From NCBI GenBank assembly GCA_045545595.1, contig JAZQBG010000019.1, positions 1 to 22,136 of the forward strand: a DNA stretch of 22,136 nt, in the 5' to 3' direction. This stretch comes from Bacilli bacterium (GTDB lineage Bacteria > Bacillota_I > Bacilli_A > RF39 > UBA660). The notes under the pieces were generated by a model. That model worked only from the letters and a program-made list of their open reading frames with translations, made no database searches and was not told the origin of the DNA. The position numbers and the translations under genes were made by a program. This document shows positions 1 to 8,815 of this stretch, piece after piece (the stretch's first letter is position 1; each line of letters begins with the position of its first letter).

Positions 1-1341
1 TACTCTTGCATTTTCTGGTAGTTTCCATTTACCATTTACTTCTCTATCTAGTACTAGATTAAATGCCATGTTTTGTATTGCTGGTAATGCATTTGTTATT
101 TCATCTAAAAATACTATGTGTATCTTATCTTTTTCTTTTTCACATCTTTCTTCTAGCTTAACTAACCATGTTGGTTTTATATCTATTATCTTTTTACTAC
201 TTTCTATTAATTTATCAAAACTGATTTCACCTTTATCATACATTGGCTTTAACATTTCAAATGTTGCTTGATCTGTCATAGCTACACTTTTTCCATTTAA
301 GCTTTCTGGAGTTGCATTAGCTAGGTATATTATTTCACAATCTGGATCTAATTGTTTTACCCTGGCGCTTTTACCTTCACTACTTCTACCATGTAATAAT
401 ACTGATATTCCACTTTGTACTGAAGCTTTTATTATATCTTCTTCACTTACTTCTTCAAAATCAAAGTTATATGGATTTTTTCTTCTATTATTTTCTTCAT
501 CTTGTTCACTACTTACTTCTAGATTTACTGCTTTTGTACGAAACATTTCTATTGACAAATATTTATCCATAAACTCTTTCATATCAGTCTTAGAAAAATC
601 ACCTTTGTAATCCCTTGTGTTTTTAAACTGTATACCTGATACTATTATTTCTTCAGTTATCATTAATTTTGACTTTTCATCTACTAACCATTTTACTGGT
701 TCAACTTCAACCCATACATAATCACCACGTGTATAAGTTTCCCCGTTTGATAATGTAAATTCATCATCGAATGTATTAGCTGCAACTCTTACATATTTTT
801 TCCCGTTATATTCATATTCAGCATGAACTTTTGGACAAAATACTTCGTAATAATCATAACACATTATTGAATCAGTTATGTATGCATTGTTATTTTTATT
901 TAATCTTAAAGCAAGAAAGGTATCCTCTAATTTGTCTTGTATATTTTTAGGCGCTGCACTTCTTGGATAATAACCATATTCTACTTCTAGTATTCCATCT
1001 TTTGATCTTCCACTCACTCCGTTCGTGGGGATTGATTGGACGCTAGAGAACGATAAAGCGGGACGGACCCCACCAGTACGCTTATTAACAAGGTTGCTGT
1101 TACTATCACCATCGTAGTGAACGACGCGCGCGTCATTATCCTGATCATCAGTTTTAGTCCAATACCATCCTGTTCTTTTATCTAGTGTACGAGTATAGTC
1201 TACATAAAAAACACTACTTACAAATCCACCTAAAAGAATCGCAAAATCTGTTATTGCAGCTTTTGTTCCTCTTTTCTTTATTACATCTAGTGCCTTATCT
1301 CCAAATATTTGACTTTCTTCTAACAATGTTAGTTCTTGCAT
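1..1341 (-). CDS. DGR target protein, paralog 2 (5' portion only, runs off the left edge): N-terminal variable domain + AAA+ ATPase
   Basis: Not in the ORF track because it is edge-truncated. Hand translation from ATG (1341-1339) gives MQELTLLEESQIFGDKALDVIKKRGTKAAITDF... with no stop in 447 codons. It is highly similar by eye to residues 1-450 of the 665-aa ORF at 3226-5223, apart from the VR and a divergent linker with a 3-codon length difference. Walker A GRSSEGKS and Walker B IVFLDEITN are present. Confidence 0.8.
   Translation of the reverse strand, partial: MQELTLLEESQIFGDKALDVIKKRGTKAAITDFAILLGGFVSSVFYVDYTRTLDKRTGWYWTKTDDQDNDARVVHYDGDSNSNLVNKRTGGVRPALSFSSVQSIPTNGVSGRSKDGILEVEYGYYPRSAAPKNIQDKLEDTFLALRLNKNNNAYITDSIMCYDYYEVFCPKVHAEYEYNGKKYVRVAANTFDDEFTLSNGETYTRGDYVWVEVEPVKWLVDEKSKLMITEEIIVSGIQFKNTRDYKGDFSKTDMKEFMDKYLSIEMFRTKAVNLEVSSEQDEENNRRKNPYNFDFEEVSEEDIIKASVQSGISVLLHGRSSEGKSARVKQLDPDCEIIYLANATPESLNGKSVAMTDQATFEMLKPMYDKGEISFDKLIESSKKIIDIKPTWLVKLEERCEKEKDKIHIVFLDEITNALPAIQNMAFNLVLDREVNGKWKLPENARV
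1059..1132 (-). repeat. DGR variable repeat VR2
   Basis: 74 nt, colinear with TR 6527-6600. There are 9 mismatches: 8 at plus-strand T (coding-strand A of the TR) and 1 in the 3'-terminal hairpin loop. Encodes ARVVHYDGDSNSNLVNKRTGGVRP; the TR in the same frame encodes ARVVNNDGNSNNNNVNKRNGGVRP. Confidence 0.9.
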
Positions 1342-1374
1342 TATCTATCACTTACTTTCTCTTAAGTTTACGCA

Positions 1375-2826
1375 TTACCTTTTTCTACAATTATTTGAAT
1401 TTGAGTTAGATAATTTTTTTAATTGCTCATCCGTAATATATATAACTTTACCACCTGGTGGATTTATTTTGTCACTACCAAATACTACCCATATAGCATT
1501 TACACTTTTTTCAGGCATATCTGCATATCCATCAGTAAATATTATTTTATTTTCTGTCCTTCTAGAAAACGCATTAACTGCTGTATCAAAATTTGTTCCA
1601 CCTCTACCTACAAATTCCATATTATCAATGTCTTTTTCATTTCTAATTTCATGAAAACCATAAAATTTAGTGTCAAAACATCCGACCTTTACTTTAGAAG
1701 TTTTCAAAATATTTTTACATTCTCTAAGAAAATTTCTAAGTAGTGTATTATTAATAGAGCCACTGGTATCTAATAATATTTCAGTTTCTGGTTGAGGCAT
1801 TTTTTCAAGATGAGGAGTTACGATACCATCTTCAACAGTTGCGTTCTTATAAGACCAATCTACATTTAATTTAATAGCTTCCCTTAAATATCTTCTCCAG
1901 TCAATTAAAGGTGAAGCATTTCCTATATCATCAAATTTTATAATATTGGAATCAGTAGTATTACCTGAACTAGTAGATTGTTTCGCTAAAGAATTTTTAA
2001 GTTCTTCCAATAATTTTTCTTTTTCTTTTTTATTTTCGCTAAACGTTTTCTTTTCTCCTTGTTCAGATAGTTTTTTTATGGTTTCCTCTTTTTTACTTTT
2101 AGGTTCTGTATCTCCTTGTTCATTCTGAGGTTCAGTTTTTTCTTCTTTAGTTTCTTCATTTTTATCTCTATTAAATAATTTGTCTAAGAAATTACTTTTC
2201 TTTTTATTTTCCTTTTTCTCTTCTTGTTTTTGTCCGTTACCATTACTATTTTGTTGGTCTTGATTTTTTCTCTTTTCAATGGCATCATCCCACATACTAT
2301 GAGAGTCATGACCTACATTCATATCTTCAAATGTATCATCGCTTGACGAACTTTGACTAGGATTATTCTCTTGTCCATTTCCATCAGAACTAGACTGACT
2401 ATTTTTGTTGTCTTTCTGATTTTGGTTATTATTTTCCTTTTCCTTTAATAGTTTTTCATAATATGATTCAACATCATAATTATATGCTTCTGGTTTGTTA
2501 ACTCCACCTTCAACAAGTGGTAATCCATCATGCACTAAGTTTGCATTAATCACTGCATCTGCAGCTGTATTCCATAATCTTTTATCCTTGCCTTCACTTC
2601 TATAAATATGATTAAGCGCAACATGGGCTATTTCATGTGCAAAAATAAATACTTTTTCATCTTCTGTTAATCCACTTATAAAATCAGGATTATAATAAAT
2701 TGTATCACCATCTGTTTCTGCTATTGGACATTTTATTGTTTCAACATAATTCATATTCGCAAGTACACTTCCAAATGATGGATACTTTATAAGCAGTTTT
2801 CTTTTTATGTTATCTACATTTACCAT
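1375..2826 (-). CDS. VWA-like domain protein with N-terminal HExxH zinc metallopeptidase-like domain (DUF2201-type, as recalled) and a long low-complexity linker
   Basis: 483-aa ORF with AGGAGA RBS 6 nt upstream. N-terminus has FAHEIAHVALNH (HExxH) followed by WNTAADAVINANL. C-terminus has LLDTSGSI ... GGTNF ... IIFTDGY, typical of a VWA/MIDAS-like fold. About 175 aa of N/Q/S/K/E-rich linker lies between. This domain pair is a classical partner of MoxR-type AAA+ ATPases. Confidence 0.85.
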   Translation of the reverse strand: MVNVDNIKRKLLIKYPSFGSVLANMNYVETIKCPIAETDGDTIYYNPDFISGLTEDEKVFIFAHEIAHVALNHIYRSEGKDKRLWNTAADAVINANLVHDGLPLVEGGVNKPEAYNYDVESYYEKLLKEKENNNQNQKDNKNSQSSSDGNGQENNPSQSSSSDDTFEDMNVGHDSHSMWDDAIEKRKNQDQQNSNGNGQKQEEKKENKKKSNFLDKLFNRDKNEETKEEKTEPQNEQGDTEPKSKKEETIKKLSEQGEKKTFSENKKEKEKLLEELKNSLAKQSTSSGNTTDSNIIKFDDIGNASPLIDWRRYLREAIKLNVDWSYKNATVEDGIVTPHLEKMPQPETEILLDTSGSINNTLLRNFLRECKNILKTSKVKVGCFDTKFYGFHEIRNEKDIDNMEFVGRGGTNFDTAVNAFSRRTENKIIFTDGYADMPEKSVNAIWVVFGSDKINPPGGKVIYITDEQLKKLSNSNSNNCRKR

Positions 2827-2836
2827 ATAAATTCTC

Positions 2837-3229
2837 CTAGATTTGCGCTAATAAAGAATATATATTTTCATTTATAGGATTTTCTTTTAAATTAGAACAT
2901 GTAACAATAATGATACAATTCTTAGGTAATTCAAAAGTACTTACTTTTTTATATTTTAATATTTCACCAAACTTTATTTGTTCGTCAGTTGATATTTTAT
3001 TAATTTCATTTATAACTAGTATTTGATTCTTTTTTTCTATCAGTTCATTATACCAATTAGGCGCTACAAAATTTGTTTCTTCATAACTTCCATTTAATAT
3101 TTCTCTATCACAGTTACTTTCAATAATTACAGCATCTTCAAATGCTTTCACAGAAACATCCTCCATTAATATTGGTGAAATCCCCGATTTTATATAACTA
3201 TTTAAAATTTTCATTTTTTCTTCATTCAT
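2837..3229 (-). CDS. Small operon protein of unknown function; possible degenerate AAA+ core fragment
   Basis: 130-aa ORF. Its ATG overlaps the TGA of the upstream gene (ATGA), which suggests translational coupling. The segment LVINEINKISTDEQIKFGEILKYKKV...LPKNCIIIVTCSNL mimics the Walker B to sensor-1 stretch of the neighbouring ATPase (IVFLDEITNALPSIQNMAFNLVLDREV...LPENARVVAAGNEL), but with NE in place of DE and no P-loop. Confidence 0.6.
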   Translation of the reverse strand: MNEEKMKILNSYIKSGISPILMEDVSVKAFEDAVIIESNCDREILNGSYEETNFVAPNWYNELIEKKNQILVINEINKISTDEQIKFGEILKYKKVSTFELPKNCIIIVTCSNLKENPINENIYSLLAQI

Positions 3230-5223
3230 AGTTTTTTTGCTCCTTCATTCAAATTACTAACTCTAAGTTCAGCTATTCTCTCAAGTCTATCATTATCTCC
3301 ATGTATCCATATATTATCAAATGTTGCGGTTACTTCTGGTCCTAACTTTTCTACAAAACTTCTTACTACTTCTACATGTTCATCACTTACACTTGATAAA
3401 CCTAAAGCTGTCGCGTATTTTTCTGACAAGTTCATATTTAAATCACTTTCTGTATAGTTGTTATTTATTACATCTTCTACTGTAATTACTTGTTCTCTAC
3501 AGAAATTTACAAAGTCATATGTTACTTCTTCTCCTACTAATCCTCTTATCATCTCTGGCTTACCTGTTGTATATAATACCTTTGATGCCATCTCCCATTT
3601 TCTTGGGTCTGCATTAGGTTTTTCTCCTGTATATTCTGTTCTTAATGCTTCTATTCCTTTGTATGCTATAAAGGCATATACTGCTGGATGTATCTTTGTT
3701 TTTACTTCTTCTTTCTTATAATCTAATCTTTGATATTTTTCTTCTGGTGTCGATGCCCACTTTAACCAACTCTCTACTGTTGTCTCTATATATACATGAC
3801 AAAATCTATTATACAGTGGTTCTGTTAATTCGTTTGCTGACAATGAATCAGAAAGCTCATTTCCTGCCGCTACTACTCTTGCATTCTCTGGTAATTTCCA
3901 TTTACCATTTACTTCTCTATCTAATACTAGATTAAATGCCATGTTTTGTATACTTGGTAATGCATTTGTTATTTCATCTAAAAATACTATATGTATCTTA
4001 TCTTTTTCTTTTTCGCATCTCTCTTCTAGATTAACTAACCATGTTGGTTTTATATCTATTATCTTTTTACTACTTTCTATTAATTTATCAAATGTTATTT
4101 CACCTTTATCATACATTGGTTTTAACATTTCAAATGTTGCCTGGTCAGTCATAGCTACACTTTTACCATTTAAACTTTCTGGTGTGGCATTAGCTAGGTA
4201 TATTATTTCACAATCTGGATCTAATTGTTTTACTCTGGCACTTTTACCCTCACTACTTCTACCATGTAATAGTACTGATATTCCACTTTGTACTGAAGCT
4301 TTTATTATATCTTCTTCACTTACTTTTTCAAAATTAAAGTTATATGGGTTTTTTCTTCTATTATTTTCTTCTTTTTGTTCCTTTATTTCAGTACCTAAAT
4401 CCATATATATTGTTTGGAAATTTAACATTTCTTTTGACAAATATTTATCCATAAACTCTTTCATATCAGTTTTAGAAAAATCACCTTTATAGTCTCTTGT
4501 ATTTTTAAACTGTATACCTGAAACTATTATTTCTTCTGTAATCATTAATTTTGATCTTTCATCTACTAACCACTTTACTGGTTCAACTTCAACCCATACA
4601 TAATCACCACGTGTATAAGTTTCTCCATTTGATAATATAAATATCTCATCTTTAGAATTAGCTCGTACTCTTACATATTTTTTCCCGTTATATTCATATT
4701 CAGCATGAACTTTTGGACAAAAAACTTCGTCATAATCATAACACATTATTGAATCAGTTATGTATGCATTGTTATTTTTATTTAATCTTAAAGCAAGAAA
4801 GGTATCCTCTAATTTGTCTTGTATATTTTTAGGCGCTGCACTTCTTGGATAATAACCATACTCTACTTCAAATATTCCATCTTTTGATCTTCCACTCACT
4901 CCGTTCGTGGGGATTGATTGGACGCTAGAGAACGGTAAAGCGGGGCGTACCCCAACAGTACGTTTATTAACATAGTTGTTGTTACTATCACCACCGATGT
5001 TAACGACGCGCGCGTCATTATCCTGATCATCAGTTTTAGTCCAATACCATCCTGTTCTTTTATCTAGTGTACGAGTATAGTCTACATAATATTTGTTACT
5101 TACATATCCACCTAAAAGAATCGCAAAATCTGTTATCGCCGCTTTTGTTCCTCTTTTCTTTATTACATCTAGTGCCTTATCTCCAAATATTTGACTTTCT
5201 TCTAATAATGTTAGTTCATTCAT
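3226..5223 (-). CDS. DGR target protein, paralog 1: N-terminal variable (C-type-lectin/FGE-like, GVRPAL-type) domain fused to an AAA+ ATPase (MoxR/AAA_5-like)
   Basis: 665-aa ORF with AGGTGA RBS 7 nt before the ATG at 5223. No signal peptide or TM segment. Residues ~55-97 read GWYWTKT...ARVV...GVRPALPF, the pattern seen in small DGR-type variable ligand-binding domains. The VR covers residues 71-94. The central part has Walker A GRSSEGKS, Walker B IVFLDEITN, VVAAGN and YNRF motifs. Confidence 0.9.
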   Translation of the reverse strand: MNELTLLEESQIFGDKALDVIKKRGTKAAITDFAILLGGYVSNKYYVDYTRTLDKRTGWYWTKTDDQDNDARVVNIGGDSNNNYVNKRTVGVRPALPFSSVQSIPTNGVSGRSKDGIFEVEYGYYPRSAAPKNIQDKLEDTFLALRLNKNNNAYITDSIMCYDYDEVFCPKVHAEYEYNGKKYVRVRANSKDEIFILSNGETYTRGDYVWVEVEPVKWLVDERSKLMITEEIIVSGIQFKNTRDYKGDFSKTDMKEFMDKYLSKEMLNFQTIYMDLGTEIKEQKEENNRRKNPYNFNFEKVSEEDIIKASVQSGISVLLHGRSSEGKSARVKQLDPDCEIIYLANATPESLNGKSVAMTDQATFEMLKPMYDKGEITFDKLIESSKKIIDIKPTWLVNLEERCEKEKDKIHIVFLDEITNALPSIQNMAFNLVLDREVNGKWKLPENARVVAAGNELSDSLSANELTEPLYNRFCHVYIETTVESWLKWASTPEEKYQRLDYKKEEVKTKIHPAVYAFIAYKGIEALRTEYTGEKPNADPRKWEMASKVLYTTGKPEMIRGLVGEEVTYDFVNFCREQVITVEDVINNNYTESDLNMNLSEKYATALGLSSVSDEHVEVVRSFVEKLGPEVTATFDNIWIHGDNDRLERIAELRVSNLNEGAKKL
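3874..5223 (-). repeat. ~1.35-kb direct repeat with 1-1341 (paralogous 5' parts of the two target genes)
   Basis: Offset is 3882 at the gene starts and VRs and 3873 at the window's left edge, so copy 1 is 9 nt (3 codons) longer inside a divergent linker (about 4370-4440 versus 495-560). The remainder is near-identical by eye. Confidence 0.85.
4941..5014 (-). repeat. DGR variable repeat VR1
   Basis: 74 nt, colinear with the TR. There are 8 mismatches: 5 at coding-strand A positions of the TR (AAC>ATC, GAT>GGT, AAT>GAT, AAT>TAT, AAT>ACT) and 3 non-A changes, all within the last 15 nt. Encodes ARVVNIGGDSNNNYVNKRTVGVRP. Confidence 0.9.
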
Positions 5224-5275
5224 TTGTAAATCACCTACTACTATAATTCTACCATATTTTCACTATTTTTTAAAA

Positions 5276-6307
5276 TTATTCTCCATATTTATGAGGAAAA
5301 GTATCATTTTTAAGTTTTAAACTTTCATCTGTATTTTTAATATGATTATAAAAAGCATTTTTTCTAATATAGACATATTCATCATCCACTATATTTTTAT
5401 TCCTTAATTTGTTTAGCGTTTTTAAATGTCTTTTTAATCTAATCTTTGATGATGAACGTAATTTTCTTAATATCCGTCCATTACTATTTAAAATGTGTCT
5501 ATATCCAAGGAAATCTATTCCATTTTTAACCATACCTATTTGTGTTTTAAAATTCAATTCTAAATTAAGTTCATTGTTACATAACTCATCTATTTTATTT
5601 AAACAATAATTTAAATAATTTTTATCTCGGTGAATTAGTATCATATCATCCATGTATCGGATATAACCTTTAATTCTTAGTTTTTCTTTTATTAATCTAT
5701 CTACTTTATTTAAATAGAAAAGCGCAAACAATTGACTGGATTGATTGCCAAGTGGTAATCCTGCACTAGCATTATCTGGTTGTTCTTTTACTAGTTTTTT
5801 AATTAACCACATTTCATCAAGTGAAAATTCTACATTTTTAAGTAAATTTAATAATACTTGGTGGTCAATACTAGGAAAGTATTTTTTTATATCACATTTT
5901 AAATAGTAGATTTTATTATTACGTTCTTTTAAGTATTCATGTCGTAAAAATTTTTCTAATCTATTTATTGCAAAGCTACTACCCTTACCTTTTCTACAAG
6001 CAGCGTTGTCATATATTAATTTTTTCTCTATTTTAGGTTTAAGAACATTATCACAAAAACATCTTATAACTATTCTATCCTTAAATGGCGGTGCCTCAAT
6101 TAATCTTTTCTTTGGTTCATAAATTAAAAATGTTTTATATTTTCTTAATTTATATTTTTTTGTAGTTAGTTCTTTTTTTAAATTATTTAAATTAACTGCA
6201 AGATTAATTTCAAACCTAATAACTTCACCCTTATGTTGTTTAGATTTTCTACACTCTAAATAGGCATTGTATAAATTTTCAAAAGTAAATATTTCTTCTA
6301 ACTCCAT
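5276..6307 (-). CDS. DGR-type reverse transcriptase
   Basis: The ORF track starts at 6331 (GTG). I prefer ATG 6307 (MELEEIF...), which follows an AGGGGG RBS 6 nt upstream. Motifs: KCDIKKYFPSIDH, GLPLGNQSSQLFALFYLN (the [I/L]GxxxSQ signature that separates DGR RTs from retron and group II RTs), and YIRYMDDMILI (YxDD). It sits next to the TR. Confidence 0.92.
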   Translation of the reverse strand: MELEEIFTFENLYNAYLECRKSKQHKGEVIRFEINLAVNLNNLKKELTTKKYKLRKYKTFLIYEPKKRLIEAPPFKDRIVIRCFCDNVLKPKIEKKLIYDNAACRKGKGSSFAINRLEKFLRHEYLKERNNKIYYLKCDIKKYFPSIDHQVLLNLLKNVEFSLDEMWLIKKLVKEQPDNASAGLPLGNQSSQLFALFYLNKVDRLIKEKLRIKGYIRYMDDMILIHRDKNYLNYCLNKIDELCNNELNLELNFKTQIGMVKNGIDFLGYRHILNSNGRILRKLRSSSKIRLKRHLKTLNKLRNKNIVDDEYVYIRKNAFYNHIKNTDESLKLKNDTFPHKYGE

Positions 6308-6526
6308 AAATTTCCCCCTAAAAAAGAACACTCCGTGTAACTTGTAAAAAACAGATTATCTATTCGTTACTTGTGTAAGTGTTCATGTTTTTCCATCGCA
6401 CTTATTTCTTTTAGCGGTTAGAAAAGAGAAAAATTCCTTCACTTTAAATGCTGATATATTTTACTTAAAATATATTTATCTGATTTGTTTTATAGATTCA
6501 CATTGTAAATCTTTTCAAAAGTGAAT
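6308..6526 (-). ncRNA. DGR RNA spacer region between TR and RT (expected to be co-transcribed with the TR)
   Basis: Non-coding, with no credible ORF. Two inverted repeats: GATTCAC 6495-6501 / GTGAATC 6521-6527, abutting the TR 3' end, and GAACACT 6326-6332 / AGTGTTC 6378-6384, just upstream of the RT RBS. In characterised DGRs the TR-adjacent spacer is part of the functional RNA. Confidence 0.55.
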
Positions 6527-6600
6527 CGGGACGAACCCCACCATTACGTTTATTAACATTGTTGTTGTTACTATTACCATCGTTGTTAACGACGCGCGCG
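6527..6600 (-). repeat. DGR template repeat (TR)
   Basis: An intergenic 74-nt copy of the VRs. The coding-strand sequence is rich in AAC/AAT codons (9 AAY codons) and contains 23 adenines. It begins with CGCGCGCG and ends in a GGGG-UUCG-UCCC hairpin, a strikingly GC-rich patch in an AT-rich genome. Confidence 0.9.
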
Positions 6601-6672
6601 AAAAATACTCTACAAACAAGTACGCACACATAAAAATTTTTCCCTTAATCAAAAGTCTTTCGACTTAAAATC

Positions 6673-7257
6673 CTAATGTTTTGTATTCCATCTTTTATCA
6701 TCACTTTTCTTCCAAGCAATAGTTAAATTGATTGCTTCAGCAACTTGCATAGAAATTTGTTTATATTGTTTTTTTAATATACAAGAAGAATTAAAGGCAA
6801 GTAATGAAATATACCCTAATAGTTTTAGTTTTACTATAGCCTGTTTTTGTAATTCTTCTCTTCTTAATTTGTTATCTGTTGAGTCTATCCTTATATAATT
6901 AGCTTGCAATAAATATTCTAATGTATCTATACAATAGTTTTGCATACGATTAACAAATACTCCTCTAAATTTTTTAGGTGACTTTTCTGTAACTGTAATA
7001 ACGTATGCGGCTAATTTCTTTACAACAGTTATTACAACCAATTCATTAGCGTTATATGGTATTTTAGATATTGTTTCTAAATCTTTGTCCTCTTGCATTA
7101 TCACTTCTTTAGTTAATTTTTCATCAAATTTTATGTTATTTGCTGTAGCGATACCTTTTTTAATCTGTACTATATCTTCTACACTATTTGGATTTCTATC
7201 ATGTACATCTATTTGTTTTGGTATTTTCAAATTATTATCTCTACTTACTTGAAACAT
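6673..7257 (-). CDS. avd: Avd-like accessory variability determinant (four-helix-bundle type) with an N-terminal extension
   Basis: 194-aa ORF with AGAGGAG RBS 7 nt upstream. It lies directly upstream of the TR on the same strand. The C-terminal ~125 aa is helical and basic, with the general look of Avd/'23S rRNA-intervening-sequence' family proteins (KKFRGVFVNRMQNYCIDTLEYLLQAN ... AEAINLTIAWKKSDDKR). Assignment rests on position and pattern only. Confidence 0.6.
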   Translation of the reverse strand: MFQVSRDNNLKIPKQIDVHDRNPNSVEDIVQIKKGIATANNIKFDEKLTKEVIMQEDKDLETISKIPYNANELVVITVVKKLAAYVITVTEKSPKKFRGVFVNRMQNYCIDTLEYLLQANYIRIDSTDNKLRREELQKQAIVKLKLLGYISLLAFNSSCILKKQYKQISMQVAEAINLTIAWKKSDDKRWNTKH

Positions 7258-7347
7258 ATATTAACTCCTCTAAATTGTTTGTTTATATAAAACTAATTAA
7301 CAATGTAGTCTATTTTATCATAAAATATTTTGAAAGGAGTAATAAAA

Positions 7348-7608
7348 ATGTATACTGAATATTATGAAACATATCCAACATACACTTATACCAGTTCAGA
7401 AAACCCATCTAACATGACTACATATAGTTATAATCAAAATGATGGTGATAGATTAATTGGTGGATTTGGGGTTCCATTTGTATTAGGCGGGATAACAGGT
7501 GGACTACTTGCACCTGCATTTTATCGTCCATACTATAGACCACCATTCTATGGATCGTATAGACCATATAGACCATATTATAGGCCTCCATTTTATGGAA
7601 GATGGTAA
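7348..7608 (+). CDS. Small Tyr/Pro-rich protein with a central Gly-rich hydrophobic segment and tandem YRPYYRPPFYG repeats
   Basis: The ORF track starts at TTG 7330. ATG 7348 is preferred because AAAGGAG lies 8 nt upstream. The two repeat units differ only by synonymous changes, and a rho-independent terminator follows. Confidence 0.65.
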   Translation: MYTEYYETYPTYTYTSSENPSNMTTYSYNQNDGDRLIGGFGVPFVLGGITGGLLAPAFYRPYYRPPFYGSYRPYRPYYRPPFYGRW

Positions 7609-7697: not shown

Positions 7698-8438
7698 ATG
7701 AAAAGATTATATGAACAAGTACCTATAGATACTTGGAAGAGGATTGCAGACAGAGTTAAAAGATTAAATATAAATGGTTATACAAGCGATGAATTTAATT
7801 CAAATTTGAAGATATTACAAAATTTATTGTCGGATTTAGATTTATCATTAGAAGAAGGAAAGAAAGAACCAAAAATTGACGATCAAATTGGATTATCATC
7901 ATTACTATCTTCTATTTATTGTACAAGTATTATTCCAGAAAGTTCTATACAAGACTTTTGCGAATATATTTATGCATTAGATGATTTAGGTGTAGAAAAC
8001 ATAACATATAGACCAGTTAATTTTCCTAATAAAATTAATACAAAATTAGAGTATAGCGATGATTATGTACATATGCAAAAACTTATAAGTAAATGTTATA
8101 CAGATGGAAAGTTTAAATTATCAAGACCAGATATAATTAGTTATTGTGATTATAATCGATATTTAATTACAAATATAAAAGATGCTTCATATATATTAAT
8201 CACTAAAATTTCTCATCAAAGACCATATGCATTAAAAGAACCACAAGTATTAGAATCTGAAATTGTAATTAAAAACTTTAAAGGTAATTTACCAGATAAA
8301 AAAGAATTAATAAATATAGAATTCCCAAAATTAAAAATTCATTCTAGAAAAATTAGTTGGGGCGAAAGTCCAGAATATAGTCAAATATTTAATGAATATA
8401 TTAATGAAGATATAATTGTTAAAAAACTAAAAAAATAG
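7698..8438 (+). CDS. Hypothetical protein
   Basis: 246-aa ORF with GAAGGT RBS and a terminator downstream. I recognise no motifs. Confidence 0.6.
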   Translation: MKRLYEQVPIDTWKRIADRVKRLNINGYTSDEFNSNLKILQNLLSDLDLSLEEGKKEPKIDDQIGLSSLLSSIYCTSIIPESSIQDFCEYIYALDDLGVENITYRPVNFPNKINTKLEYSDDYVHMQKLISKCYTDGKFKLSRPDIISYCDYNRYLITNIKDASYILITKISHQRPYALKEPQVLESEIVIKNFKGNLPDKKELINIEFPKLKIHSRKISWGESPEYSQIFNEYINEDIIVKKLKK

Positions 8439-8440
8439 CA

Positions 8441-8474
8441 ATAAGCCATCAGTTTAACCTGATGGCTTATTTTA
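8441..8474. terminator. Bidirectional rho-independent terminator
   Basis: Perfect 12-bp stem ATAAGCCATCAG / CTGATGGCTTAT with a 6-nt loop. T runs follow on both strands. It lies between convergent ORFs. Confidence 0.8.
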
Positions 8475-8484
8475 AATATATAAA

Positions 8485-8643
8485 TTATTGTGAAACACTT
8501 ATTTCATTTAACATTTGTTCTTTTATTTTATCAATATCAGTAAAGAAAAGGTTAATACCTCGTTTCTTCATTTCTAACATATTATTAAAATTATCTAATA
8601 TTTGATCTTTTATATGGTATATATAACCGGTTTGTACTTTCAT
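8485..8643 (-). CDS. 52-aa ORF downstream of the tandem RNA repeats (MKVQTGYIYHIKDQILDNFNNMLEMKKRGINLFFTDIDKIKEQMLNEISVSQ)
   Basis: Below the ORF track size cutoff. AAGAGGA RBS lies 7 nt before ATG 8643, and the ORF ends just before the bidirectional terminator. Function unknown. The N-terminus is vaguely reminiscent of ToxN/AbiQ-type toxin N-termini, from memory only. Confidence 0.45.
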   Translation of the reverse strand: MKVQTGYIYHIKDQILDNFNNMLEMKKRGINLFFTDIDKIKEQMLNEISVSQ

Positions 8644-8675
8644 ATCATCATCCTCTTATATAAAAAGTATAACAA

Positions 8676-8714
8676 AATTGAAAAGAAAACTCTATTCAAA
8701 AGAATAAAGTTTTC
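8676..8714 (-). terminator. Rho-independent terminator (minus strand) between the repeat array and the 52-aa ORF
   Basis: 13-bp stem (8685-8697 / 8702-8714, with one G-U pair on the minus strand), a 4-nt loop, and a U run (UUUUCAAUU) following on the minus strand only. Confidence 0.75.
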
Positions 8715-8717
8715 AAA

Positions 8718-8815
8718 CATTTTCGTTCGGGATAATTTATTACTCGCACCACCCGAGAGCGAGAAACATTGTCGACCGGAATAACTTATTACTCGCACCA
8801 TCCGGGAGCGAGAAA
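8718..8815 (-). repeat. Two tandem 49-nt repeats, each predicted to form an H-type pseudoknot (structured RNA; type III antitoxin-like or tandem aptamer)
   Basis: Period is exactly 49 nt (the AAACATT motif recurs with its C at 8718, 8767 and 8816). 42 of 49 positions are identical. Stem 1 is CUCGC/GCGAG in both copies. Stem 2 is UCGGG/CCCGA in one copy and CCGGA/UCCGG in the other, i.e. two compensatory base-pair changes. The stems are interleaved in the order S1-5', S2-5', S1-3', S2-3'. Confidence 0.7.

Follow-up and report, generated by a model that had tools for sequence, protein, structure and literature searches.

The first 7,257 nucleotides of contig JAZQBG010000019.1 from a Bacilli bacterium (GenBank assembly GCA_045545595.1; the 22,136 nt analysed here are called the window) very probably hold a functional-type diversity-generating retroelement (DGR) that diversifies two ATPase genes. 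The DGR itself is genuine, and the architecture of its targets is new. Its genes are all encoded by the minus strand, in the order avd, template repeat (TR), reverse transcriptase (RT) and target, as an initial annotation made from the sequence had stated when it proposed a complete DGR. Indeed, every component that it named is present, and both the cassette and its signature recur in about 20 other species. What that annotation had listed as evidence against a DGR was not observed: the RT is nearest to Brt of Bordetella phage BPP-1, the body of the variable repeats (VRs) carries no non-adenine mismatch, and the variation among relatives is mostly confined to the VR. Three points were absent from it, namely that the VRs are N-terminal, that the window ends within target 2, and that the targets stand in the context of an ATPase operon.

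Adenine-specific differences between template and variable repeats

The window was searched for repeats, and the TR was compared with VR1 and VR2 on the minus strand in exact register. A single repeat family was found, with three colinear members that are 85–88% identical; these are the three copies of the initial annotation, which gave them as 74 nt and which measure 80 nt each. TR positions 1–59 comprise 23 adenines, distributed over 12 codons, and 36 other bases. Over this stretch VR1 differs from the TR at 5 positions and VR2 at 8, and each of these differences (5/5 and 8/8) falls on a template adenine, in agreement with the earlier counts. Substitutions to C, G and T are all represented. 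The hypergeometric probability of such adenine-only differences is 0.0067 for VR1 and 0.00022 for VR2 (about 1.5e-6 jointly). The earlier restriction of the comparison to 59 nt was both necessary and correct, since differences at other bases begin at position 60; they are confined to the last ~20 nt, the end that resembles the initiation of mutagenic homology element of VRs (IMH) and its TR counterpart (IMH*).

In this 3′ end, T67 is replaced by A in VR1 and by C in VR2, T70C occurs in VR1 only, and both A75C and C78T are common to the two VRs. The TR ends in ..CCCGATTCAC and the VRs in ..CCCGCTTTAC, in DNA whose G+C content around the repeats is 25–30%. The corresponding difference, GATTCAC in the TR versus GCTTTAC in the VR, is kept in all lineages compared (about 20 cassettes), the TR motif being ..CC(A/C)GATT(C/T).. 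where the VR reads ..GCTT(T).. in every one of them. This fixed difference is the apparent mark of the 3′ boundary.

Translated in the VR frame, the template reads ARVVNNDGNSNNNNVNKRNGGVRP, as the initial annotation had it, with no stop codon and one AAA codon. The design had been called classical, which holds for the AAY-rich template and fails for the layout: both VRs are N-terminal in their open reading frames (ORFs), so that the IMH-like end lies inside coding sequence. Typically, if not as a strict definition, the VR of a DGR sits at the C-terminus of its target, in a C-type-lectin or Ig-like fold; here it occupies codons 71–97 of 665. The survey by Wu et al. (PMC5758913) counts N-terminal diversification in only 3 of 372 DGRs.

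The TR and VR of about 20 of the full cassettes of other species were located by an ungapped nucleotide scan. TR adenines account for 294 of the 378 TR/VR differences in this set, against 32% of TR bases, and many pairs differ at adenines only. An alignment of 57 target homologues has entropy peaks of 2.3–3.8 bits at residues 75, 76, 77, 79–84, 86, 87 and 89, which are exactly the 12 adenine-bearing template codons; G78, V85, R88 and R93 are invariant or nearly so. We also compared alleles, that is, near-identical proteins from different samples within 90% identity clusters. The closest relatives of the window protein are 78–79% identical to it, and among them the alleles P0002 and P0314 (78%) differ at 12 columns, all within residues 65–89, and match elsewhere over ~660 residues. 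In the P0010 cluster 14 of the 21 variable columns, with up to 8 states, belong to the VR, and the P0003 cluster contains two VR haplotypes. Polymorphism confined to the VR at TR-adenine sites, a check proposed in the initial annotation, is therefore seen in the alleles of the nearest relatives. The DGR is probably still active.

About half of the related TRs carry TAA or TAG in the VR reading frame (L006, L007, L012, L013, L016, L017, L020, L040, L059 and L062), frequently in the form N*NG at the codon that corresponds to residue 76. Adenine mutagenesis leaves such codons nonsense or turns them into codons for W, L, Y, F, C or S, and VR stop codons at these sites are found in four reference genomes (L006, L007, L013 and L040). 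An alternative genetic code was rejected as their explanation, as all three stops occur and the neighbouring genes read normally by tblastn. The template of a classical DGR is a stop-free AAY design, to which in-frame stops run counter. Their occurrence suggests that related DGRs may also make null or OFF alleles.

The cassette proteins and a covarying spacer RNA

The best solved relative of the RT is PDB entry 8ub7_A (1e-38), which tblastn identifies as Brt of phage BPP-1 with 100% identity; group II intron RTs follow far behind (5e-14). The assignment to the DGR type by the initial annotation is thereby borne out, as are the motifs that it named. The protein contains LPLGNQSSQ, aligned to IPIGSLTSQ of Brt, as well as YMDD, and matches PHROG 1423 at 2e-103. 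In RTs of the DGR clade an [I/L]GxxxSQ motif replaces the usual motif-4 sequence. The listed start, GTG 6331, is overlapped by helix 6 of the spacer RNA described below, and ATG 6307 has a GGGGGA ribosome-binding site in front of it. Because of the overlap ATG 6307 is the likelier start, and the real RT is probably a protein of 343 aa.

The gene upstream of the TR, which had been described as Avd-like, encodes an accessory variability determinant (Avd) according to its match to PHROG 3206, ‘Avd protein of DGR’ (8.2e-15). Its four-helix-bundle part (residues ~70–190) is preceded by an N-terminal extension of ~70 aa (window 7050–7257), which has no domain match and is kept in most related cassettes. 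Full-length homologues with 57–73% identity lie upstream of the RT in most of these cassettes. PDB sequence and profile searches with Avd returned nothing useful. In DGRs generally, the accessory protein beside the TR and RT is of the Avd or the HRDC type.

Between the TR and the RT lies a spacer of 180–224 nt in 20 related cassettes, measured from TR end to RT start. It is highly conserved, and its alignment (19 lineages) was folded with RNAalifold. This gave 7 helices with 47 pairs, 26 of which show compensatory changes. Paired cells amount to 96.2%, versus 36–56% when the 3′ partners are slid by 1–3 columns, and in none of 500 shuffles did either the count of covarying pairs or the covariation score come up to that of the real alignment. 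Helix 2, in which the 3′ end of the TR is paired, covaries: 14 lineages have CA/TG and the other 5 have TG/CA. Rfam recognises no group II intron, retron RNA or other family in the region. In Bordetella, priming is supported by a structured RNA adjoining the TR, the Sp region. By analogy, the spacer RNA may be the platform on which RT and Avd prime cDNA synthesis into the TR.

The BPP-1 DGR (avd-TR-brt, with target mtd), the prototype of these elements, resembles the present one in its Avd, in a TR placed between avd and the RT, in the structured spacer after the TR, and in an RT with the [I/L]GxxxSQ and YMDD motifs. The likeness extends to the adenine-specific differences between TR and VR, the AAY-rich template and the G+C-rich 3′ end that differs between the two repeats. 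On the other hand, BPP-1 has the order target-avd-TR-RT, and its TR measures 134 nt versus ~80 here. Unlike BPP-1, the present element has its VR near the target N-terminus, with the IMH-like end coding and no clear hairpin after the VR; it is chromosomal and has two targets, both cytoplasmic ATPases, where the target of BPP-1 is a phage tail fibre. The coordinates of all features are collected in Table 1.

Table 1. Features of the DGR and its target operon (window coordinates; H1–H7, spacer helices)
Feature	Position	Strand	Length	Remark
avd	6673..7257	minus	194 aa	Avd-like by profile matches
TR	6521..6600	minus	80 nt	intergenic, 72 nt past the avd stop
TR, mutagenic part	6600..6542	minus	59 nt	
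TR, IMH*-like 3′ end	6541..6521	minus		GGTGGGGTTCGTCCCGATTCAC; G+C-rich; from repeat comparison
Spacer RNA between TR and RT	6326..6530	minus	~190 nt	analogue of the Bordetella Sp region
H1	6530-6529/6437-6436	minus		RNAalifold
H2	6525-6518/6445-6438	minus		pairs the TR 3′ end (TTCACTTT = 6525..6518)
H3	6512-6507/6499-6494	minus		RNAalifold
H4	6475-6467/6462-6454	minus		RNAalifold
H5	6422-6414/6399-6392	minus		RNAalifold
H6	6384-6377/6333-6326	minus		RNAalifold; then a U-run just ahead of the RT ribosome-binding site
H7	6365-6360/6354-6349	minus		RNAalifold
DGR reverse transcriptase	5276..6331 as listed (GTG 6331)	minus		by PDB, PHROG and motifs
Target 1	3226..5223	minus	665 aa	VR-bearing N-terminal module, linker, AAA+ ATPase
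VR1	4935..5014	minus	80 nt	codons 71–97 of target 1
130-aa protein	2837..3229	minus	130 aa	start overlaps the target 1 stop by 4 nt
DUF2201 protein	1375..2826	minus	483 aa	
Target 2	1..1341	minus	447 codons visible	truncated by the window edge
VR2	1053..1132	minus	80 nt	codons 71–97 of target 2

The target ATPases, their operon and their relatives

Target 1 consists of an N-terminal module (residues 1–268), a disordered linker (~269–288) and an AAA+ ATPase (~300–650) with Walker A GRSSEGKS and Walker B IVFLDE. It matches Pfam AAA_5 at 4.3e-5 and PHROG 1297, ‘ATPase’, at 7e-46 over residues 305–634. Target 2 is its paralogue, and the two genes are 92.5% identical in nucleotide sequence. Read by eye, the sequence of target 1 shows neither a signal peptide nor a membrane helix; an AAA+ ATPase devoid of both argues for targets that would be cytoplasmic. 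AlphaFold models the N-terminal module with confidence (pLDDT 91, pTM 0.91). A Foldseek search of this model against PDB and BFVD gave nothing below E 0.1, and the full-length target model returned generic AAA+/helicase noise only. Residues 45–96 of the window protein weakly match the VR-bearing C-terminal end of DUF6273 (0.0019), as do 7 of 25 relatives (best 5e-6, over ~50 residues and under the Pfam threshold), and also, weakly, the C-terminal end of Fib_succ_major.

The target gene is followed by those of a 130-aa protein, which matches nothing in Pfam, NCBIfam, PADLOC or PHROGs, and of a DUF2201 protein. The latter combines an N-terminal zincin-like metallopeptidase (HEIAH), a low-complexity linker and a C-terminal VWA-like domain (Pfam DUF2201_N, 4.4e-35; DUF2201, 2.2e-14). 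It also matches PHROG 1314 (2e-69), whose label ‘HNH endonuclease’ looks like a misnomer. PDB sequence and profile searches with the target and the DUF2201 protein yielded nothing useful.

Homologues of the target number more than 3000, mostly of ~645 aa and from gut metagenomes, and the N-terminal module family has 2929 representatives at 50% identity. Among GTDB species representatives 78 distinct target loci were recovered, labelled as uncultured Bacilli or ‘Tenericutes’, Clostridia, Coprobacillus sp. CAG:605, Candidatus Faecisoma and others. Where a locus reaches far enough, the ATPase gene is almost always followed by the ~130-aa gene and then by the DUF2201 gene, and the arrangement is a common one among gut bacteria. 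The presence of the cassette was surveyed in the 62 loci with enough upstream sequence: a full RT stands directly upstream of the target in 23, nearly always with Avd and TR, an RT remnant only is left in 10, and the upstream flank contains no RT in 29. The remnants (L005, L009, L024, L025, L043, L044, L047, L051, L060 and L080) comprise 40–290 codons and have no detectable TR, and Avd persists only in L080. The module of ATPase, small protein and DUF2201 protein evidently outlives its diversifier.

Target paralogues are often in tandem across the family. In L062 (7001–16000) one cassette is followed by four tandem targets whose VRs are identical and show several non-adenine differences from the TR, which could reflect recent duplication, assembly collapse or an inactive element. 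Other homologues (P0004, P0006, P0007, P0165, P0168 and others) reach ~900–1000 aa and carry two or three copies of the N-terminal module before the ATPase.

Besides the BPP-1 DGR, three groups of known systems come close to the present one. DGR-linked MoxR-vWA ‘VMAP ternary’ systems of cyanobacteria and gammaproteobacteria have been described (Kaur et al., 2020, PMC7159879; Dore et al., 2024, PMC10907252), and it is proposed there that the diversified protein acts as the sensor in a conflict system inside the cell. Common to both are a DGR, an AAA+ (MoxR-like) ATPase and a vWA protein, peptidase domains and mostly cytoplasmic targets. In the VMAP ternary systems, however, it is a C-terminal C-type-lectin (FGS) domain that contains the VR, and this domain usually forms part of the vWA protein or of a separate target beside the ATPase, whereas here the VR belongs to the N-terminal module of the ATPase itself. 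Moreover, the vWA partner is here the DUF2201 metallopeptidase-VWA protein, and the hosts are small-genome gut Bacilli and Clostridia instead of multicellular bacteria. Pfam, NCBIfam and PADLOC scans, which included no VMAP-specific profile, found no VMAP, trypsin, caspase or TIR domain, all of which occur as components of the ternary systems. A ternary system joins a MoxR-like AAA+ ATPase and a vWA protein to a VMAP protein with a peptidase or nucleotide-cyclase effector; the third gene here encodes the 130-aa protein without matches. Full-text literature searches on DGRs with DUF2201, AAA+ ATPases or cytoplasmic defence turned up only this cyanobacterial and gammaproteobacterial work and no account of the present architecture.

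DUF6273 is a C-type-lectin-like DGR target domain of gut Firmicutes phages, found in tentaclins and Mtd-like proteins (PMC10743442; bioRxiv 10.1101/2024.10.15.618418). The targets studied here share with it the host habitat and, as a weak profile match, the VR segment ..W.T....DARvV...G......V..R.GG.RPAL. Unlike DUF6273 targets, the module is followed here by a beta-rich subdomain and an AAA+ ATPase, and the protein is no virion component. Finally, N4-like phages (Schitoviridae), such as Erwinia phage S6 (gp035/gp036), have adjacent ATPase and DUF2201 homologues in the same order, the ATPase being 24–28% identical to the target over residues ~300–630. The phage pair lacks the N-terminal variable module, the ~130-aa middle gene and an associated DGR. 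In these phages, among them Erwinia phage vB_EamP-S6 (L084, 3998–6186), the pair lies next to the phage RNA polymerase genes.

The remainder of the window contains rnfC/D, yqeH, a sigma factor gene, cspA, radC, mreC/D, RNase J and five tRNAs. A prophage location was rejected on account of these flanks (rnf, yqeH, mreCD, RNase J and tRNA genes). Across the family the module occupies varied chromosomal sites near genes for IS605-type transposases, RhuM, recombinases and toxin-antitoxin systems. A plus-strand ORF (7330–7608) that separates the DGR from an unannotated 246-aa ORF (7698–8438) codes for 92 residues and has no family match. Tyr, Pro and Gly are frequent in it, and it shows YRPY/PPFYG repeats as well as a hydrophobic, Gly-rich centre.

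Window 8440–8812 is the remnant of a CptIN type III toxin-antitoxin locus. On the minus strand, 8812..8715 contains two tandem 49-nt units with interleaved inverted repeats and pseudoknot potential, which differ from each other by two compensatory changes and match nothing in Rfam. They are followed by a terminator-like hairpin (8714..8685), a 52-aa ORF (~8642..8484) and a terminator (8471..8440). The same repeats recur in 52 metagenome contigs, usually as two copies 49 nt apart, then a terminator and a gene. An intact gene in this position, in L116 (6647–7111), encodes a CptN toxin (NCBIfam CptIN, 1.9e-48; PDB 4rmo, 1.4e-16). Its counterpart in the window has been shortened to 52 codons by an internal deletion, with the antitoxin RNA repeats left intact.

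Proposed mechanism, rival explanations and significance

Following the Bordetella paradigm, avd, TR and structured spacer would be transcribed, and a complex of RT and Avd would bind the folded spacer with the 3′ end of the TR held in a helix. A self-primed cDNA copy of the TR, in which adenines are misread, could then replace the homologous 60–65 nt of VR1 or VR2, with directionality set by the difference between the TR and VR 3′ ends. The codons rewritten in this way, in template terms N75, N76, D77, N79, S80, N81, N82, N83, N84, N86, K87 and N89, would allow ~1e13 possible peptides within the invariant frame of G78, V85, R88 and R93. The ATPase would be co-transcribed with the ~130-aa protein and the VWA-plus-zinc-metallopeptidase protein, and the variable module would bind ligands with its surface and so determine the targets of the ATPase/VWA/peptidase machine.

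Several observations weigh against this picture of an active element that diversifies an intracellular recognition module. At position 60 VR1 carries G60T, a non-synonymous change at a base other than adenine, and it has synonymous changes of that kind close to its 3′ end. In DGRs the IMH sets directionality and often has a hairpin after it; here DNA hairpins 3′ of the VRs are not significant (z -1.9 and -1.2). The Avd match to NCBIfam DivGenRetAVD (3.4e-7) covers the whole profile and stays under the curated cut-off, as does the match to Pfam bAvd (0.0036, profile positions 2–106 of 107). As to function, no defence model of PADLOC 2.0 matches the ATPase, the 130-aa or the DUF2201 protein, and a reduced lectin-like fold of the N-terminal module is a lead and no result, with no tie to C-type lectins. 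Our best guess, from domain content and context, is that the module would serve inside the cell as a sensor or substrate selector that can be diversified. Furthermore, activity at this very locus is to be weighed against the fact that the window target forms a singleton cluster with no encoding contig on record.

The last point would also fit a DGR of genuine origin that has become an inactive fossil, with VR1 and VR2 as frozen products of past diversification. Decay is indeed common in the family, as the 10 of 62 loci with only an RT remnant and the 29 without RT indicate, and both VRs have a few non-adenine changes at their 3′ ends. Here, however, avd, the TR and every spacer helix are intact, as is the RT ORF, catalytic motifs included, and all differences in the mutagenic 59 nt fall on adenines despite a divergence of 7.5% between the paralogues elsewhere. 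Since drift after loss of activity would add non-adenine changes in these 59 nt, we consider a fossil improbable. Still harder to credit, and in our opinion practically negligible, is that there is no DGR at all, the intergenic copy being a decayed gene fragment and the RT belonging to a retron, a group II intron or a defence system. The RT does give sub-threshold matches to group II, Drt3a and retron models in NCBIfam and PADLOC, which evidently reflect general RT similarity, and in PADLOC 2.0 it matches generic RT models only. Against this reading stand Brt as by far the best solved relative and the absence of group II intron or retron RNA in Rfam, on which grounds a group II intron or retron RT was rejected, together with the adjacent Avd gene, the recurrence of the adenine mismatch pattern in ~20 lineages and the covarying spacer RNA.

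The existence of a DGR leaves room for a different view of what it serves. The module could be a phage-derived or selfish mobile unit equipped with a diversifier of its own, serving for example in take-over, exclusion or addiction, and no host sensor or defence device. This would agree with the adjacent ATPase half and DUF2201 partner of N4-like lytic phages and the matches to PHROGs 1297 and 1314, with the variable sites of the module near mobile and toxin-antitoxin genes, and with the CptIN remnant 1.2 kb away in the window. Yet the N-terminal variable module is missing from every phage record, none of which covers more than about half of the target protein, the window and the related loci have housekeeping flanks and no phage structural genes, and the module is retained in many species after DGR loss; we therefore regard such a unit as unlikely, if by no means far-fetched.

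We return to the functional-type DGR that diversifies two ATPase genes. If its targets are sensors or selectors, these are most plausibly aimed at invading elements. Tentatively, and as one possibility among others, the DGR-fed operon may represent an undescribed intracellular recognition system of gut Firmicutes, with a role in immunity or targeted proteolysis. A hypermutable N-terminal receptor would then single out proteins of phages or plasmids for remodelling or proteolysis driven by ATP, in the manner of an ‘antibody-like’ cytoplasmic device; in many lineages this device could also switch itself off, because the template there carries in-frame stop codons.

DGR targets have generally been described as surface or virion proteins with a VR in a C-terminal lectin fold. 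A large survey (Roux et al., PMC8144416) describes VRs as C-terminal and most cellular targets as binders anchored in the membrane. Reports of intracellular targets of the conflict type are confined to multicellular cyanobacteria and gammaproteobacteria (PMC7159879; PMC10907252). The locus and its family extend targeted hypermutation to the motor protein of an ATPase/VWA/peptidase machine, to small-genome gut Bacilli as hosts, and to an N-terminal VR in which the homing signal is forced to be coding. With 23 full cassettes, 10 remnants and 29 absences, its history of gain, decay and loss in different species constitutes a natural experiment on the payoff of diversification. If the variable module does select ligands, it would provide a compact natural scaffold for programmable intracellular recognition, and somatic-style diversification for bacterial cytoplasmic immunity would become a testable idea.

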